In this document: positions 1-6,394 of the stretch, one piece after another | Layout: each line of letters begins with the position of its first letter | Numbering within the stretch: the first letter of the stretch is position 1 | Virus record (IMG/VR): IMGVR_UViG_2690316099_000016 | From: a virus | Lineage: Duplodnaviria; Heunggongvirae; Uroviricota; Caudoviricetes | Length of the DNA: 6,394 nucleotides | Strand: one strand, 5' to 3' | Position numbers and translations under genes: made by a program | The notes under the pieces: generated by a model | What the model saw: the letters and a program-made list of their open reading frames with translations, nothing else | Told to the model about the DNA's origin: nothing | The model's database searches: none

Positions 1-37
1 CTATATGGCAACTAACATACGGGCCAGCCTCGCCAAA

Positions 38-568
38 CTAACCCGCTTTAGATTCTACCGGATTTGATTGCCTACTTGTCTCGGTTTTTTCCAAAATCTC
101 TCTGACGCAATCGTCTGGCATATCTACAATCATCAACGCAGCCAGGCGCTTCCTGCCTTCTAGTTGTAATAAATCCTGGTTTTCTTTATTCAGCAGTGTC
201 AGAACCGTCTCTACACCTTTGCGAGCAAGGAGATTGGTTAACTGTTCTCGTTCGTCTTTCGTAAGGAATGAAAGCATCTGTGTAAGCTGATCTCCCTTAT
301 CACCAGAACAACCAAAATCACCATAAATACCAATATCGTTTGGTAATTCACCCTTGCCCTCTTTAAGCCACTCAAGACTAACGCCTTCACTTTCAGAAAT
401 TCGTATAAGGATACTTTCTCTGGGGGCTGGTTGTGTTTGTCCTCCCTTGAAATAGCTGTTTAATGTGTTGATATTGATTCCCCACGCTCTGGCAGCTGCA
501 CTTCTTGAAGGGTAGCGCTTTGTAAGCATTCCAATACGTTCAATAACAGGTTCTTTTCCCTGCGACAT
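38..568 (-). CDS. Prophage repressor, CI-type HTH N-terminal domain (functional analogue of Mu repressor c); 176 aa
   Basis: Minus-strand ORF with ATG at complement of 566..568 and an AAGAGG Shine-Dalgarno 7 nt upstream (complement of 576..581); stop TAG at complement of 38..40. The ORF-track 336-aa version is an artefact of reading through the N run. N-terminal segment RSAAARAWGININTLNSYFKGG...GVSLEWLKEGKGE resembles the Phage_CI_repr helix-turn-helix family (compare coliphage 186 CI ...GANLQWLLTGEGE, recalled from memory). No peptidase S24 motif is visible. Divergent from ner, as for the Mu repressor. Confidence 0.75.
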   Translation of the reverse strand: MSQGKEPVIERIGMLTKRYPSRSAAARAWGININTLNSYFKGGQTQPAPRESILIRISESEGVSLEWLKEGKGELPNDIGIYGDFGCSGDKGDQLTQMLSFLTKDEREQLTNLLARKGVETVLTLLNKENQDLLQLEGRKRLAALMIVDMPDDCVREILEKTETSRQSNPVESKAG

Positions 569-587
569 AAAGATACCTCTTGGTGCT

Positions 588-1007
588 NNNNNNNNNNNNN
601 NNNNNNNNNNNNNNNNNNNNNNNNNNNNNNNNNNNNNNNNNNNNNNNNNNNNNNNNNNNNNNNNNNNNNNNNNNNNNNNNNNNNNNNNNNNNNNNNNNNN
701 NNNNNNNNNNNNNNNNNNNNNNNNNNNNNNNNNNNNNNNNNNNNNNNNNNNNNNNNNNNNNNNNNNNNNNNNNNNNNNNNNNNNNNNNNNNNNNNNNNNN
801 NNNNNNNNNNNNNNNNNNNNNNNNNNNNNNNNNNNNNNNNNNNNNNNNNNNNNNNNNNNNNNNNNNNNNNNNNNNNNNNNNNNNNNNNNNNNNNNNNNNN
901 NNNNNNNNNNNNNNNNNNNNNNNNNNNNNNNNNNNNNNNNNNNNNNNNNNNNNNNNNNNNNNNNNNNNNNNNNNNNNNNNNNNNNNNNNNNNNNNNNNNN
1001 NNNNNNN
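588..1007. other. N-masked run (420 nt); expected to contain the repressor/early operator-promoter region and the 5' part of ner
   Basis: Uninterrupted run of n characters seen directly; the content is inferred only from flanking genes. Confidence 1.
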
Positions 1008-1107
1008 ACCGTATCAGCAAATAATTGCTGATGCTCTTGGGGTATCACCTGAAGAAATCTGGCCCAGTCGATACCAGGTTAAGAGCTATATGAGAAAGGC
1101 GTCATGA
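862..1107 (+). CDS. ner: Ner-like DNA-binding protein (Ner/Nlp family); only 1008..1107 is readable, the start coordinate is an estimate inside the masked run
   Basis: Readable C-terminus PYQQIIADALGVSPEEIWPSRYQVKSYMRKAS matches the Mu Ner C-terminal signature (...GEQIIANALETKPEVIWPSRYQAGE, from memory) and the E. coli Nlp tail. Stop TGA at 1105..1107. Start estimated by placing IWPSRYQ at the same distance from the N-terminus as in 75-aa Mu Ner. Confidence 0.8.
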   Translation, partial: XXXXXXXXXXXXXXXXXXXXXXXXXXXXXXXXXXXXXXXXXXXXXXXXXPYQQIIADALGVSPEEIWPSRYQVKSYMRKAS

Positions 1108-1108
1108 T

Positions 1109-3250
1109 ATGTATGTCATTGCAAAAGAACTGATTGGCGCGCCCGGAATGCCTGCTACAACAAAAGGTATTCGCCAGGCATTACAACGTTACGTACAAGG
1201 GAAAAGCTGTTGTTCCCGTCGTCGCTCAGGCTCTAAAGCAACTGAATACAGCATCGACTGTTTACCTGAAGTGACGCAGCAGGCATTACGTGAACGCTAC
1301 GCCCTGCAACTGATGACGCAAAAAGCCGATGAATCACCGGCTCCGGTGGTGACAAAGGCCAGACGCTCACCTGCCGTGGTTGATGCGGTGGAGGCATATC
1401 GCGGATCACCCCAACTGATGGTCGAACGCCTCAATGCCCTGACTGAAAACCAACGTAAAGTGGCAGAGGCACGAATAGCGATCGTCAGCGAGGTGCTGAA
1501 AATCGCGCAACAACCCGGCTTTAGTTGCGCTAAGGCTATCCGGTTCCTCGTTAACAGCCTGGCACGATCACAACTGGACGAGCGCATTGTGGCAATGGTT
1601 GAGACGGCGAACGCCAAAAAGGGAAACAGCCGCGCGTTGAGTGAAATCACGCTGAAACGCTGGATTGCGGCCTTTAACAAGGCACAGAACGCCGCTGAAC
1701 GCCTGCTTTTACTGGCACCGGGTAAACGCCAGGAAATAAAAGCCGAAGATATTAACTGGCTGCCCGAATTTCTGGCGCAGTATCGCCAGTCAAACGGCCG
1801 ACCAATGACCGAGGCTTACGAGGATTTTGTTGCTGAATGGCAGCACCGGCACGCTGATGAGCCTTATATGCTCGATATCATGCCCTCTTATGACACCATT
1901 CGCCGCGCAATGAAGAAACTGCCGGAAGTGGTGAAACAAAAAGGCCGGGTAACTGGCAGTGAATACCGTCAGCTTGAGGGATTCACGCGCCGCGACTGGT
2001 CCAGAATGCCGGTGAATTATGTCTGGATTGGTGACGGTCACGGCATGAAGCTGAAATGCGCGCACCCGGTTCACGGGCGGCCATTCGCACCGGAAGTGAC
2101 CTTTGTTATCGACGGTGGCACGCGCTTTGTGGTGGGCTGGAGCCTTGACCTGGCTGAAAATGTTTTCGCCGTAGCCGGTGCCATACAGCACGGTATTCGC
2201 CATCATGGCAAACCGTTTCTGTATTACTCGGATAATGGCTCCGGGGAAACCGCCGACGTCCTGGATAAGGAGATTGTGGGGATACTGCCACGACTGGGGA
2301 TTAATCACCCGACAGGGATTGCCGGTAATCCGCAGGGACGGGGCATTATCGAACGGCTTAACCGCACATTACCGATGCGCATAGCCCGTAAATACCGCAC
2401 CTATTTCGGGAAAGGAGCAGATCGCGAGACGTTACGTAAAACCAACCGCGATTTACGCTCGGCATTCAGTGCCCTGCAACAGGGCAAACGGCTGAACGCC
2501 CGGCAGCAGTCAGCGATGCGTGATTTACCGTCCTGGTCTGAACTGATTGATGCCATTCGTGACGGTGTTGAGTGGTACAACAACCGGCCGCACGATGAAT
2601 TACCCATGAAGCCGAACGGTAAACATTACAGCCCGGCGGAGTTCAGAAAAAAACGCCTGGCGGAAGAGGACACGGAAATTGAATGGCTGTCCGATGTTGA
2701 ACTGCGGGATATGTTCCGGCCGATGGTGGAGCGCCCTGTAAGACGCTGTGAAATACGCTGGCTGAATAATATTTACTACGCGCCCGAGCTGCGTGACGAG
2801 CATGGCCGTAAGGTACTTATCAGCTATGACATTCATGATGCCGAACGAATTACCGTGCGCCGCCCGGATGGCAGCGTGATTTGCGAGGCGGTATGGGACG
2901 GCAATAAACGCGAAGCCTTCCCTGTCAGCGCGGAATACTACAAACAGCANNNNNNNNNNNNNNNNNNNNNNNNNNNNNNNNNNNNNNNNNNNNNNNNNNN
3001 NNNNNNNNNNNNNNNNNNNNNNNNNNNNNNNNNNNNNNNNNNNNNNNNNNNNNNNNNNNNNNNNNNNNNNNNNNNNNNNNNNNNNNNNNNNNNNNNNNNN
3101 NNNNNNNNNNNNNNNNNNNNNNNNNNNNNNNNNNNNNNNNNNNNNNNNNNNNNNNNNNNNNNNNNNNNNNNNNNNNNNNNNNNNNNNNNNNNNNNNNNNN
3201 NNNNNNNNNNNNNNNNNNNNNNNNNNNNNNNNNNNNNNNNNNNNNNNNNN
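1109..3250 (+). CDS. A: MuA-like DDE transposase (transposase A); 1109..2949 is readable (613 codons), the 3' end is an estimate inside the masked run
   Basis: ATG at 1109, 1 nt after the ner stop. N-terminus ELIGAPGMPATTKGI...RRSGSKATEYSIDCLPEVTQQAL aligns by eye with MuA domain I-alpha (ECANLPGLPKTSAGVI...GVKGGKAIEYNANSLPVEAKAAL). Putative catalytic triad: D309 in WIGDGHG (codon 2033..2035), D375 in YYSDNGSGE (codon 2231..2233), E415 in GRGIIERLNRTL (codon 2351..2353). The ORF-track continuation to 3682 is a frame artefact across N. Confidence 0.9.
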
Positions 3251-3629
3251 NNNNNNNNNNNNNNNNNNNNNNNNNNNNNNNNNNNNNNNNNNNNNNNNNN
3301 NNNNNNNNNNNNNNNNNNNNNNNNNNNNNNNNNNNNNNNNNNNNNNNNNNNNNNNNNNNNNNNNNNNNNNNNNNNNNNNNNNNNNNNNNNNNNNNNNNNN
3401 NNNNNNNNNNNNNNNNNNNNNNNNNNNNNNNNNNNNNNNNNNNNNNNNNNNNNNNNNNNNNNNNNNNNNNNNNNNNNNNNNNNNNNNNNNNNNNNNNNNN
3501 NNNNNNNNNNNNNNNNNNNNNNNNNNNNNNNNNNNNNNNNNNNNNNNNNNNNNNNNNNNNNNNNNNNNNNNNNNNNNNNNNNNNNNNNNNNNNNNNNNNN
3601 NNNNNNNNNNNNNNNNNNNNNNNNNNNNN
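2950..3629. other. N-masked run (680 nt) covering the 3' end of A and the 5' end of B
   Basis: Uninterrupted run of n characters seen directly. Confidence 1.
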
Positions 3630-4338
3630 GGAAACTCAGACAGTCCAGGAGCTGCGCGCACTGTTTCAGGCGGTTCGCCTGATGGGCTGTATTAACGTTA
3701 TTGTGGGCGTACCGGGTGTGGGTAAAACGGCCACTGCCCGTAATTACTGCCAGGAGCAACCAAACACCTGGATGATCACCCTGTCACCCGCGCACTCCAG
3801 CGTCACGGAGTGTCTGCTGGAGCTGGCCGATGCGCTGGGGATTGATTACACCCGCGCGAACAAAGGGGCATTATCCCGCGCCATCCGCCGTCGCCTGATG
3901 GGAACGCGTGGACTGGTGATTGTGGATGAGGCGGATCATCTTGGTATTGACGGTCTGGAGCAACTCCGGGCAATTCAGGACGCCACGGGGATCGGGATGG
4001 TGCTTATTGGTAACCCGCGCGGATTGTTTAAAGGTGGACGCCGCGCCTTTGATGATTTATCGCGCCTGTTCAGCCGTCTTGCCCGTACAAAACAACTTCG
4101 CAAGGCCAAAAAGGCGGATGTGCTGGCCATTGCCATGGCGTGGGGGATCAGTGGTGAGGCCGAGCTGGCCGTCATGCAGGCTATCGCTGAAAAGCCGGGA
4201 GCGTTACGCGTTCTGACACATACGCTTAACCAGGCGTGGCTCACCGCCAGCGGTGAAGGCGCGGCGCTGACAGAAAAACATATTAATGCGGCCTTTAAAG
4301 AGGTTTATACCAACCCTGAATTACTCTCACAGGTGTGA
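3412..4338 (+). CDS. B: MuB-like AAA+ ATPase, transposition target-DNA activator (protein B); 3630..4338 is readable, the start is an estimate inside the masked run
   Basis: Frame 1 is open from the masked boundary: ETQTVQELRALFQAVRLMGCINVIVGVPGVGKT... matches Mu B (ETQTVKQIWTSMRFASLTESIAVVCGNPGVGKT, from memory). Walker A GVPGVGKT at 3706..3729, Walker B LVIVDEADHL at 3913..3942, and a conserved C-terminal block KKADVLAIAMAWGI...AIAEKPGALRVL. Stop TGA at 4336..4338. The track start at 3682 is an internal Met. Confidence 0.9.
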   Translation, partial: XXXXXXXXXXXXXXXXXXXXXXXXXXXXXXXXXXXXXXXXXXXXXXXXXXXXXXXXXXXXXXXXXXXXXXXXXETQTVQELRALFQAVRLMGCINVIVGVPGVGKTATARNYCQEQPNTWMITLSPAHSSVTECLLELADALGIDYTRANKGALSRAIRRRLMGTRGLVIVDEADHLGIDGLEQLRAIQDATGIGMVLIGNPRGLFKGGRRAFDDLSRLFSRLARTKQLRKAKKADVLAIAMAWGISGEAELAVMQAIAEKPGALRVLTHTLNQAWLTASGEGAALTEKHINAAFKEVYTNPELLSQV

Positions 4339-4340
4339 TT

Positions 4341-4562
4341 ATGGCGGTATTTAATATTCCTGATATTTACGGACGCTTTTACCTGGTTAATTTCGATAAC
4401 GTGAAGGTGATTTCACTGGCCGAAAATAAAGAATGTGGCGATTTACTTTTTGAATTTAATGACCGCACACGAATGGTGATATCTGCCGGACTTGATCGCG
4501 AAGGTGCGACAGAAGTTTACAGCGGAATATGCCGTTCTGTTGGTGCGAAACAAGTCAGCTAA
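4341..4562 (+). CDS. Small hypothetical protein (73 aa) in the position occupied by kil in Mu; function not established
   Basis: ATG at 4341 with AGGTG at 4331..4335 (5-nt spacing), embedded in the last codons of B. Stop TAA at 4560..4562. No recognisable motif; Mu Kil sequence not recalled well enough to align. The track start (GTG 4335) is less likely. Confidence 0.6.
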   Translation: MAVFNIPDIYGRFYLVNFDNVKVISLAENKECGDLLFEFNDRTRMVISAGLDREGATEVYSGICRSVGAKQVS

Positions 4563-4574
4563 ATGAGGTGTTAT

Positions 4575-4829
4575 ATGAATATGCAATCCTGCGGTAACAA
4601 AATGAATTTATTCGACTCCCTGAACAGCGCGCGCCGTCTGACCGAACTTGCCGGTGCGGTACTGGAACGCAGTAAGCGCTATCCGCAACGTTTTGCACTG
4701 AAAACCACGCCGCCGGTAGGCAACGTGCAGGGAACCGGTGAAATTGAAATCACCATACAGACCAACGGCCTGCGCCGCCGTGTGAAGGCCACCCGCATCA
4801 GCGGCTGCACGGTTTACTGGGAGGTGTGA
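4575..4829 (+). CDS. Small hypothetical protein (84 aa), early accessory region
   Basis: ATG at 4575, preceded by GAGGTG at 4565..4570. Alternative in-frame starts are ATG 4563 (immediately after the upstream stop, no SD) and ATG 4581. Stop TGA at 4827..4829. No recognisable domain. Confidence 0.55.
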   Translation: MNMQSCGNKMNLFDSLNSARRLTELAGAVLERSKRYPQRFALKTTPPVGNVQGTGEIEITIQTNGLRRRVKATRISGCTVYWEV

Positions 4830-4830
4830 G

Positions 4831-5112
4831 GTGAAAAAAAATCTCATTGCATGGGCGTGGTCGAGTGGTCTTATTGAGTTTGGTTACGTCCTGCCGGAAG
4901 GTGCATTGCCGATAGTTGCCGGAAAGCCTGCCACGGTACGGCATGTGATTGAGGTTATGGCGCGTCATGGACGTGATGAACAGGAGCAGTTACTGGTTCC
5001 GGGGATACCGGAAGCGGTGACGGAGGAAGAAGCCTTTAATGCCATGATTCGGTTCTGCCGTGAGGTCAGACGCCGGGTCAGTTATCCAAACAGAACGAGG
5101 ACCAGAGGATGA
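4831..5112 (+). CDS. Small hypothetical protein (93 aa) with a basic C-terminal tail, early accessory region
   Basis: GTG start at 4831 with GGAGG at 4819..4823 (7-nt spacing), lying inside the last codons of the upstream ORF. Stop TGA at 5110..5112 overlaps the next ATG (ATGA). No recognisable domain. Confidence 0.55.
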   Translation: MKKNLIAWAWSSGLIEFGYVLPEGALPIVAGKPATVRHVIEVMARHGRDEQEQLLVPGIPEAVTEEEAFNAMIRFCREVRRRVSYPNRTRTRG

Positions 5113-5819
5113 GTAAAGTCGTACACATTATTTTCGAATATAAGGAGCACGTTATCCATAAAAACGCTGATGGAACAGTGCGCATNNNNNNNNNNNNNNN
5201 NNNNNNNNNNNNNNNNNNNNNNNNNNNNNNNNNNNNNNNNNNNNNNNNNNNNNNNNNNNNNNNNNNNNNNNNNNNNNNNNNNNNNNNNNNNNNNNNNNNN
5301 NNNNNNNNNNNNNNNNNNNNNNNNNNNNNNNNNNNNNNNNNNNNNNNNNNNNNNNNNNNNNNNNNNNNNNNNNNNNNNNNNNNNNNNNNNNNNNNNNNNN
5401 NNNNNNNNNNNNNNNNNNNNNNNNNNNNNNNNNNNNNNNNNNNNNNNNNNNNNNNNNNNNNNNNNNNNNNNNNNNNNNNNNNNNNNNNNNNNNNNNNNNN
5501 NNNNNNNNNNNNNNNNNNNNNNNNNNNNNNNNNNNNNNNNNNNNNNNNNNNNNNNNNNNNNNNNNNNNNNNNNNNNNNNNNNNNNNNNNNNNNNNNNNNN
5601 NNNNNNNNNNNNNNNNNNNNNNNNNNNNNNNNNNNNNNNNGTGATACGGAGAACAGACCGACAGGCCCATGTGATGTTTATGCGCAAATTCTTAAATATC
5701 ACAGCCCCACAATTATTCAGTTTCTGACAGATGAACTTCAGGGTTCCATGCAGGCTCTGGGGGTGAAAAGCAGCATTGAGCGCCGCTCCTTGCAGAACGC
5801 ACCAGATACATTGCAATAA
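5109..5819 (+). CDS. Hypothetical protein, about 236 aa if it is a single ORF; the middle 455 nt is masked, so it could be two genes
   Basis: ATG at 5109 overlaps the upstream stop; GAGG at 5097..5100. Readable N-terminus MSKVVHIIFEYKEHVIHKNADGTVR. Readable C-terminus DTENRPTGPCDVYAQILKYHSPTIIQFLTDELQGSMQALGVKSSIERRSLQNAPDTLQ ends at TAA 5817..5819, directly abutting the gam ribosome-binding site. The start frame and stop frame coincide across the N run (1 in 3 by chance), which weakly supports a single ORF. Confidence 0.4.
   Translation: MSKVVHIIFEYKEHVIHKNADGTVRXXXXXXXXXXXXXXXXXXXXXXXXXXXXXXXXXXXXXXXXXXXXXXXXXXXXXXXXXXXXXXXXXXXXXXXXXXXXXXXXXXXXXXXXXXXXXXXXXXXXXXXXXXXXXXXXXXXXXXXXXXXXXXXXXXXXXXXXXXXXXXXXXXXXXXXXXDTENRPTGPCDVYAQILKYHSPTIIQFLTDELQGSMQALGVKSSIERRSLQNAPDTLQ
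5186..5640. other. N-masked run (455 nt) inside the largest accessory ORF
   Basis: Uninterrupted run of n characters seen directly. Confidence 1.
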
Positions 5820-5830
5820 GGAAAAACAAA

Positions 5831-6361
5831 ATGGCAAAACGCGTTACAAAATTAAAGGCTGTAGCCGAGGCCGCACCGCAGACCCGCGAAGAAGTCAGCC
5901 GCGATATCCGCACCCTGGGCGATATTCAGCGAGAGGCGCTGCGCCTGGAAACGGCGATGAATGATGAAGTGGCAGAAATCACCGCCCGTTATACGCCGCA
6001 GATTGAAAATCTTAAAAAGCAAATCAAAGTGCTTTTTAAAGGGATTCAGGACTGGTGTAAAACCAACCGTGATGAGCTGACGAACGGCGGCAAAACCAAA
6101 ACTGCCAATCTGACCACCGGAACGGTGTCATGGCGGCTGGGAACGCCATCATGCAGCGTCAGCCGTGATGTGGAAGGTGTGATTGACACGCTGCGCCGTA
6201 TGGGGCTTGAGCGATTCATCCGCACGAAAGAGGAAGTGAACAAGGAAGCCGTCCTGGCGGAGCCGGATGCGGTGAAAGGCATTGCCGGTATAAAGGTGAA
6301 TAAAGGCGCTGAAAGTTTTTATGTCGAGCCTTTTGAACAGGATGCCGGACTGAATAAATAA
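5831..6361 (+). CDS. gam: Host-nuclease inhibitor protein Gam (Mu Gam / Ku-like DNA-end binding), 176 aa
   Basis: ATG at 5831 with AAGGA at 5818..5822. The protein MAKRVTKLKAVAEAAPQTREEVSRDIRTLGDIQREALRLETAMNDEVAEI...CKTNRDELTNGGKTKTANLTTGTVSWR...LERFIRTKEEVNKEAVLAEP...EPFEQDAG aligns closely by eye with Mu Gam (...IGDLQREASRLETEMNDAIAEI...ANRDELTNGGKVKTANLVTGDVSWR...LQRFIRTKQEINKEAILLEP...PFEQEAG, from memory). Stop TAA at 6359..6361. Confidence 0.9.
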   Translation: MAKRVTKLKAVAEAAPQTREEVSRDIRTLGDIQREALRLETAMNDEVAEITARYTPQIENLKKQIKVLFKGIQDWCKTNRDELTNGGKTKTANLTTGTVSWRLGTPSCSVSRDVEGVIDTLRRMGLERFIRTKEEVNKEAVLAEPDAVKGIAGIKVNKGAESFYVEPFEQDAGLNK

Positions 6362-6394
6362 CACCGCATTAATTATTTAAATATCACTTCATTT

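Follow-up and report, generated by a model that had tools for sequence, protein, structure and literature searches.

A 6,394-nt virus sequence as the probable early arm of an Sp18-type Mu-like transposable phage

Sp18 of Escherichia coli O157:H7 Sakai is a Mu-like prophage that is predicted to be intact; it is packaged efficiently, does not circularise and does not respond to induction by mitomycin C (PMC2669165). Sp18-like phages have been found at variable chromosomal and prophage sites in Shiga toxin-producing E. coli (STEC) (PMC7430833, PMC10132054), and examples are deposited in GenBank (LC727881 and LC727895). Here we analysed the virus record IMGVR_UViG_2690316099_000016 (Caudoviricetes), a stretch of 6394 nt that we call the window at its full length. 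It very likely represents the left-hand, early arm of a Mu-like transposable phage of the Sp18 type, most probably a prophage in an E. coli chromosome. The Sp18-type family is already known from STEC and further E. coli genomes, the Sp18-like phages having the gene order and tips of the family to which the window belongs, and the window is not Mu proper; the practical value of the analysis is the right label, an Sp18-type early arm and not Mu itself.

Early gene order and relatives of the window

Genes were called with Pfam and PHROGs searches. Full-length proxies for masked genes were taken from E. coli JKHS016 (contigs L001 and L002), and the window proteins were compared together with these proxies to Escherichia phage Mu (AF083977). 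We detected the features of a Mu-like transposable phage: a MuA-family transposase (A), a MuB-type protein (B) encoded directly downstream, a repressor/Ner switch and Gam. The genes follow the Mu-like order, with a leftward repressor, ner, A, B, a kil-type and other small open reading frames (ORFs), and gam. The first-pass annotation, made from the sequence letters, had proposed this order and had read the window as the early arm of a Mu-like transposable prophage. Family matches in Pfam and PHROGs bear out the order, and the wider reading is supported by the homology of A, B, Ner and Gam together with the near-identity of the window to annotated Mu-like prophages. The BLASTP comparison of A, B and Gam with Mu that it had suggested gave a divided answer. 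The full-length proxy of B is 48% identical to Mu B (E-value 4e-96) and Gam is 57% identical to Mu Gam over its full length (E-value 8e-71), but A matches MuA weakly if significantly (22-25% identity, E-value 1e-9), both proteins belonging to phrog_310. The full-length proxy of Ner is 43% identical to Mu Ner (E-value 1e-12).

The first-pass annotation did not mention that N makes up 1555 of the 6394 bases (24%), distributed over three stretches (588-1007, 2950-3629 and 5186-5640); the 4839 non-N bases (76%) are called readable below. The masks conceal, in order, the control region and most of ner; the C-terminus of A, the A-B spacer and the N-terminus of B; and most of two small ORFs. They exceed the JKHS016 sequence at the same places by 99, 124 and 140 nt, respectively, and the first is ~100 nt too long also when set against five other unmasked relatives that were checked. 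Since the length of a mask does not equal the length that it hides, reading frames cannot be transferred across the masks, and ORFs traced across them are artefacts. All readable genes of the window are intact.

Matches to the window were found by megablast in 248 of 5426 complete E. coli genomes (~4.6%), at no more than four places per genome and with roughly 300 copies in all. The best match, a prophage of E. coli JKHS016, differs by 2 substitutions in the 4839 readable bases. Sp18 of Sakai is collinear with the window, with nucleotide identities of 98.8, 96.5, 98.8 and 89.5% over the four readable segments. Its repressor, A and B genes are equal in length to those of the window, the 4-bp flanking duplication described below is found in Sp18 as in the relatives of the window, and the differences between Sp18 and the window are allelic only. 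The fourth segment (5641-6394), which holds the last small ORF and gam, is less similar to Sp18 than the other three, which points to recombinational mosaicism in the early operon.

Among 50,697 phage records, megablast of the whole window returned only two inserts in Stx phages and two Yersinia phages. The full-length matches were confined to regions annotated as "inserted Bacteriophage Mu-like phage" within two Stx-converting phages. The Yersinia phages vB_YpM_5 and vB_YpM_6 (MT374853 and MT374854) are 81.9% identical to the window over 1638-2946, a part of A, and the remainder of the window is without a megablast match in them; their transposase gene is the closest among the listed phage records other than the Sp18-type inserts in Stx phages.

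In the same megablast search of the phage collection, no genome of the Mu group (Mu, D108, SfMu) was matched, and it is very improbable that the window derives from Mu proper or a close Muvirus. The gene order is alike, and homology to the Mu counterparts is clear for B, Gam, Ner, gp11, gp12 and GemA. Against such an origin stand the low identity of A to MuA, a repressor N-terminal domain of another class, and tips and a duplication length that differ. The family lacks the features that define the Mu group strictly (CA at the right tip, duplication of 5 bp and a repressor N-terminal domain homologous to the transposase N-terminus), although in outline it would work as Mu does. Non-phage transposons of the Tn7, Tn552 and Tn5053 type (TnsB/TnsC or TniA/TniB) are likewise built around a DDE transposase with an AAA+ ATPase after it. 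That the window is such a transposon with a MuA/MuB-like pair is barely credible, given the domains Mu-transpos_C, HTH_Tnp_Mu_1 and Phage-MuB_C, the accompanying Ner, Kil-like and Gam genes, and relatives that run on into a complete myovirus late region, with Gam, Ner and the late genes in each full-length one.

Element ends and target duplication

Exactly 37 nt of the window lie to the left of the repressor stop codon (38-40), as had been noted before, and the left end, starting with 5'-TG, had been expected beyond the window at a distance of no more than a few hundred bp. Relatives place it there, by proxy only: in 10 measured copies at different sites, homology ends at the left tip, located 213 nt (in one copy 214; in Sp18 213) to the left of the equivalent of window position 1. 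In these relatives the tip is 250 nt from the repressor stop, compared with 338 nt in Mu. The tip reads 5'-TGTAACCAGGTGAATCATTTGATACC (TGTAACC...), with the 5'-TG of Mu-like phages, and is common to 15 copies with different left flanks (a JAB-domain gene, an Stx2c phage, mhpD, ypdB, rhsD, araG, an SDR gene, dcuC, the xylE-psiE gap, garP, sorM and four IMG/VR flanks). In JKHS016, a truncated JAB-domain gene of the CP4-44 element follows 250 nt past the repressor stop. The right ends of the relatives likewise adjoin many different genes.

The right tip reads ...GGTATCAAAAAAATCGCCGCGCTATA (last bases ...GCGCTATA) and ends in TA, not CA, in 8 of 8 copies examined, whereas the right tip of Mu ends in CA (...GCTTCA). 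All eight junction pairs are flanked by a direct repeat of exactly 4 bp (TAAG, CATC, GTAG, CACC, ATTA, AGTA, TCCC and TAAA). An empty-site test agrees with this length: a composite of the araG flanks with one GTAG copy equals intact araG at 196 of 196 positions, ungapped. The 5-bp duplication of Mu, which the first-pass annotation had predicted here, was therefore not upheld. Two ways of lengthening the repeat were tried and rejected. When the last phage base is taken as a fifth target base, it mismatches in 6 of the 8 pairs, and a left boundary moved to give a 5- or 6-bp repeat works by chance at araG only and not at other sites. The depositors of GenBank LC727881 also annotate a 4-bp duplication. 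In the known pattern for transposable phages, Mu duplicates 5 bp of its target and B3 duplicates 6 bp (PMC8705779), and our search of the literature for a 4-bp duplication in transposable phages found no paper that discusses it.

Sequence comparison thus shows unrelated insertion sites with identical tips and a short duplication, which are Mu-like features, and the element is present at many unrelated sites with fixed tips, sometimes in several copies per genome. This points clearly to a mobile, transposition-derived element. For the window itself, the boundaries to expect are TGTAACCAGGTGAATC about 213 nt to the left of position 1 and, ~32-40 kb away, a far end reading ...TCGCCGCGCTATA, with a 4-bp duplication at the flanks.

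Repeated sites near the left end, another expectation of the first-pass annotation, are seen in the relatives as TTTGATAC-type repeats, all of them outside the window. Counted from the left tip they lie at ~13-26, 111-123 (degenerate) and 160-173, within the terminal 213 nt, and counted from the right tip at 13-26, 35-48 and 70-83. All point inward alike, with the G of GATAC at position 21 from either tip, and they recur in distant relatives. We consider these repeats predicted binding sites for A. The layout, in which the left end has a single site by its tip and a pair deeper inside while the three sites of the right end are clustered, appears to resemble that of Mu attL and attR.

Left tips can also be predicted in distant relatives by counting back 18 nt from the first TTGATAC. 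This gives TA in Sodalis and Edwardsiella and TG in Klebsiella, Raoultella and Limnobaculum (L028, L034 and L039 versus L030, L033 and L036), the predictions resting on the repeat register and not on junctions. They hint that the transposase clade may tolerate T-A as well as T-G tips.

Transposition proteins and the repressor

The transposase A contains the domains Mu-transpos_C (E-value 1.8e-17) and HTH_Tnp_Mu_1 (E-value 1.7e-6), with rve below threshold. Its catalytic DDE triad is intact: D309 and D375 align with D269 and D336 of MuA, and E415 is part of GNPQGRGIIERLN, which aligns with GWGQAKPVERAF of MuA and with the D/E motif of retroviral integrases. A direct sequence search of A against solved structures recovered only retroviral integrase cores and not MuA. 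B carries a Walker A motif (GVPGVGKT).

By tblastn, several transposases are nearer to A than MuA is: those of the Yersinia phages vB_YpM_5 and vB_YpM_6, of Pseudomonas phage VW-6B (47% identity), of Klebsiella phage Kp4852-3 (42%) and of the D3112 group (29-30%). The hosts of the D3112-like Pseudomonas phages (Casadabanvirus), VW-6B and Kp4852-3 differ from those of the window family, and the comparison with them covered A. The D3112 group are siphoviruses, whereas the Sp18-type relatives carry sheath and tube genes. Relatives at 39-78% identity are present in Shigella, Sodalis, Klebsiella, Raoultella, Pluralibacter, Edwardsiella, Limnobaculum, Kluyvera, Pantoea and Erwinia; most of them retain the repressor-ner-A-B order and have forward TTGATAC repeats, two or three in number, on the far side of the repressor gene. 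A second Mu-like type was seen in E. coli and Shigella (Shigella flexneri SFBU1023 and E. coli ECMA0423; L026 and L027), with identities of 76-78% for the transposase, 43% for the repressor and 54% for Ner and no forward TTGATAC repeats in the 2.5 kb upstream.

The repressor shows no significant blastp match to Mu c, and single-sequence searches of PDB and Pfam gave nothing significant; a nine-member profile of its family was needed. Residues 91-174 match phrog_7148, the Mu c family (E-value 1.5e-10), and residues 90-185 of Mu c cross-match phrog_3037, the family of the window repressor. With hhalign, residues 92-169 of the nine-member profile align with Mu c 102-181 (E-value 2.3e-5, probability 76%). 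The N-terminal part of the profile matches Xre/CI helix-turn-helix structures (best E-value 3.3e-7), with weaker matches that include phage 186 CI, SinR and the 434 repressor. Mu c has an N-terminus that matches the transposase family phrog_310, whereas that of the window repressor does not. Because the C-terminal halves align with Mu c while the N-terminal profile matches Xre/CI helix-turn-helix domains, the protein is best regarded as a hybrid in which a DNA-binding domain of the Xre/CI type is joined to a C-terminal domain like that of Mu c, and it shares with the Mu repressor the C-terminal domain only. In Mu, the repressor c has a DNA-binding domain in common with MuA, and the two proteins are competitors for the operator/enhancer. 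Such a competition between repressor and transposase cannot be assumed for the Sp18-type repressor.

The divergent repressor-Ner switch is represented in the window by the leftward repressor and the C-terminus of ner; the control region, masked in the window, could be read only in the proxy. There, under the first mask, lies a perfect 14-nt inverted repeat, CCAAAAATACCAAA/TTTGGTATTTTTGG (L001 20651-20688), which is a plausible candidate operator. A second, imperfect inverted repeat of 19 nt is located just before the ner start in JKHS016.

By homology with Mu, a sequence of events can be proposed for the element. The leftward repressor would bind operators in the masked divergent control region and silence the rightward early operon, and Ner would tune both promoters on loss of repressor control. 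The DDE transposase A would then bind the TTTGATAC-type repeats at both ends, nick the 3' ends and join them to the target with a 4-bp stagger, the target DNA being captured by the AAA+ ATPase B. The Kil-like protein would block cell division, and Gam would cap linear DNA ends against host exonucleases.

Our judgement is evenly balanced on whether the Sp18-type clade is a mechanistically distinct Mu-like branch, characterised by 4-bp joining, a TA 3' tip at one end and a repressor with a swapped-in Xre/CI domain. If it is, the domain swap in the repressor would abolish the Mu-style competition, in which repressor and transposase contend for one operator/enhancer. Small but concrete departures from the textbook model of Mu are the stagger of 4 bp, the TA tip and the hybrid nature of the repressor, and they could be of interest for work on transpososome geometry or mini-Mu-type tools.

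Late region, source copy and remaining features

The first-pass annotation had also expected late, tail and invertible-segment genes toward the right end. The late genes, outside the window, were seen in Sp18 and JKHS016, and intact relatives, 38.8-40.0 kb long, do carry a Mu-type late region with a contractile tail. Past the early region these relatives encode gemA-like, mor-like, lysis, terminase, portal, head, sheath, tube, tape measure and baseplate genes, then oppositely oriented tail-fibre genes beside a DNA invertase, ~3.3 kb of extra genes, com and mom. Genes downstream of the window, in the JKHS016 proxy, match Mu gp11, gp12 and GemA at 47-67%. In Mu, com follows gin directly, whereas in the Sp18 type the extra genes lie between invertase and com. 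This ~3.3-kb block (L025 34939-38091 in Sp18; L002 1751-4850 in JKHS016) includes a 2-kb DUF6645 gene and may be cargo.

The element of JKHS016 is shorter, at 31,956 bp. Its late region is rearranged, with an inverted block (L001 36711-42706 and neighbours) and several pseudogenes, the truncated genes being those for portal, protease, tape-measure, DNA-circularisation and tail proteins. This copy is therefore probably defective, as judged from its sequence. With so close a relative in this state, it is possible, if doubtful, that the source copy of the window too is a defective or rearranged prophage remnant that has kept its early arm and makes no particles. The readable genes of the window are all intact, however, the source strain may differ from JKHS016, and most family members are full length. 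The remnant explanation also bears on the state of one copy and not on the identity of the window.

Several points weigh against the assignment of the window to an Sp18-type prophage arm. The nearest relative, JKHS016, is shortened and scrambled, so the source copy may be defective. With 24% of the window masked, the intactness of ner, A and B in the window cannot be confirmed. The left end and the remaining phage are predicted by proxy only, from relatives, the window's own flanks being unread. The exact 46-mer from the window start is absent from species-representative genomes; it does occur in six IMG/VR contigs, but the first two readable segments of the window have no exact match in any of these. 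Finally, all gene roles are inferred from homology. We nonetheless retain the assignment of the window to the early arm of an Sp18-type phage, whose features are listed in Table 1.

Table 1. Features of the window and coordinates of the element junctions in relatives (positions refer to the window unless a contig is named)
Feature	Position	Strand	Evidence and remarks
Weak terminator-like hairpin, candidate	19..46	-	Overlaps the repressor stop codon and just beyond; consensus scan of proxy L001 20046-20019 (= window 46-19)
Leftward repressor, 176 amino acids (aa) + stop	38..568	-	phrog_3037 "transcriptional repressor", E-value 7e-61
Masked stretch 1	588..1007	.	Corresponds to JKHS016 L001 20588-20908: divergent control region (~190 bp) and first 50 codons of ner, as predicted from relatives
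ner, last 32 codons + stop (Cro-like early regulator)	1009..1107	+	Pfam HTH_35, E-value 1.7e-8; phrog_769, E-value 1.4e-10
A, first 613 codons of MuA-family DDE transposase (696 aa in relatives)	1109..2949, runs on into mask	+	phrog_310, E-value 1e-199
Masked stretch 2	2950..3629	.	Predicted from JKHS016: A C-terminus, 82-bp A-B spacer with hairpin, first 75 codons of B
B, last 235 codons + stop, MuB-type AAA+ target-DNA activator	3631..4338	+	Phage-MuB_C, E-value 4.9e-25; AAA_22, E-value 2.6e-18; phrog_296, E-value 2.3e-80
Small early ORF, 73 aa, no assigned function	4341..4562	+	phrog_3375, E-value 1e-46
Kil-like small ORF, 84 aa	4575..4829	+	phrog_2679 "Kil protein for bacterial septation inhibition", E-value 8e-46
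Small early ORF, 93 aa	4831..5112	+	phrog_1518, E-value 9e-43; "host nuclease inhibitor" label in PHROGs and the Sakai annotation (ECs_4949)
Two small early ORFs, mostly masked	5109..5819	+	Readable: first 25 codons of one (phrog_4107 in proxy) and last 58 codons of the other (phrog_2230)
gam, 176 aa (Ku-like double-strand DNA-end protector, host-nuclease inhibitor)	5831..6361	+	Phage_Mu_Gam, E-value 7e-42; phrog_491, E-value 5e-69
Junctions with the 4-bp repeat	L001 19788 / L002 6159; L025 471 / 39225; six other pairs		

Scans of the window for Rfam families, tRNAs and repeats returned no Rfam family, no tRNA and no significant repeats, and a scan for promoter and terminator consensus sequences gave a number of sites not above that of shuffled sequence. 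In the 82-bp A-B spacer of JKHS016, under the second mask, we observed a hairpin with a 12-bp stem and A/T runs on its flanks (L001 23108-23137). The spacer measures 38 bp in Mu, and the hairpin may act as an attenuator or terminator and so determine how much A is made relative to B.

Four of the five small ORFs of the Sp18 type are unrelated to those of Mu. The 73-aa ORF has no Pfam or NCBIfam match and no homologue among Mu E5-E8. Because the 93-aa ORF lacks a Gam domain and a Pfam match, its "host nuclease inhibitor" label may be a legacy annotation. The two mostly masked ORFs were considered as tandem paralogues from the likeness of their N-termini, a candidate that we rejected, as BLASTP gives no alignment between them. 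The Kil-like protein is weakly similar to Mu Kil (33% identity over 39 aa, E-value 2e-4), and Mu Kil cross-matches phrog_2679; its gene is the second after B in the Sp18 type, whereas kil is the first in Mu.

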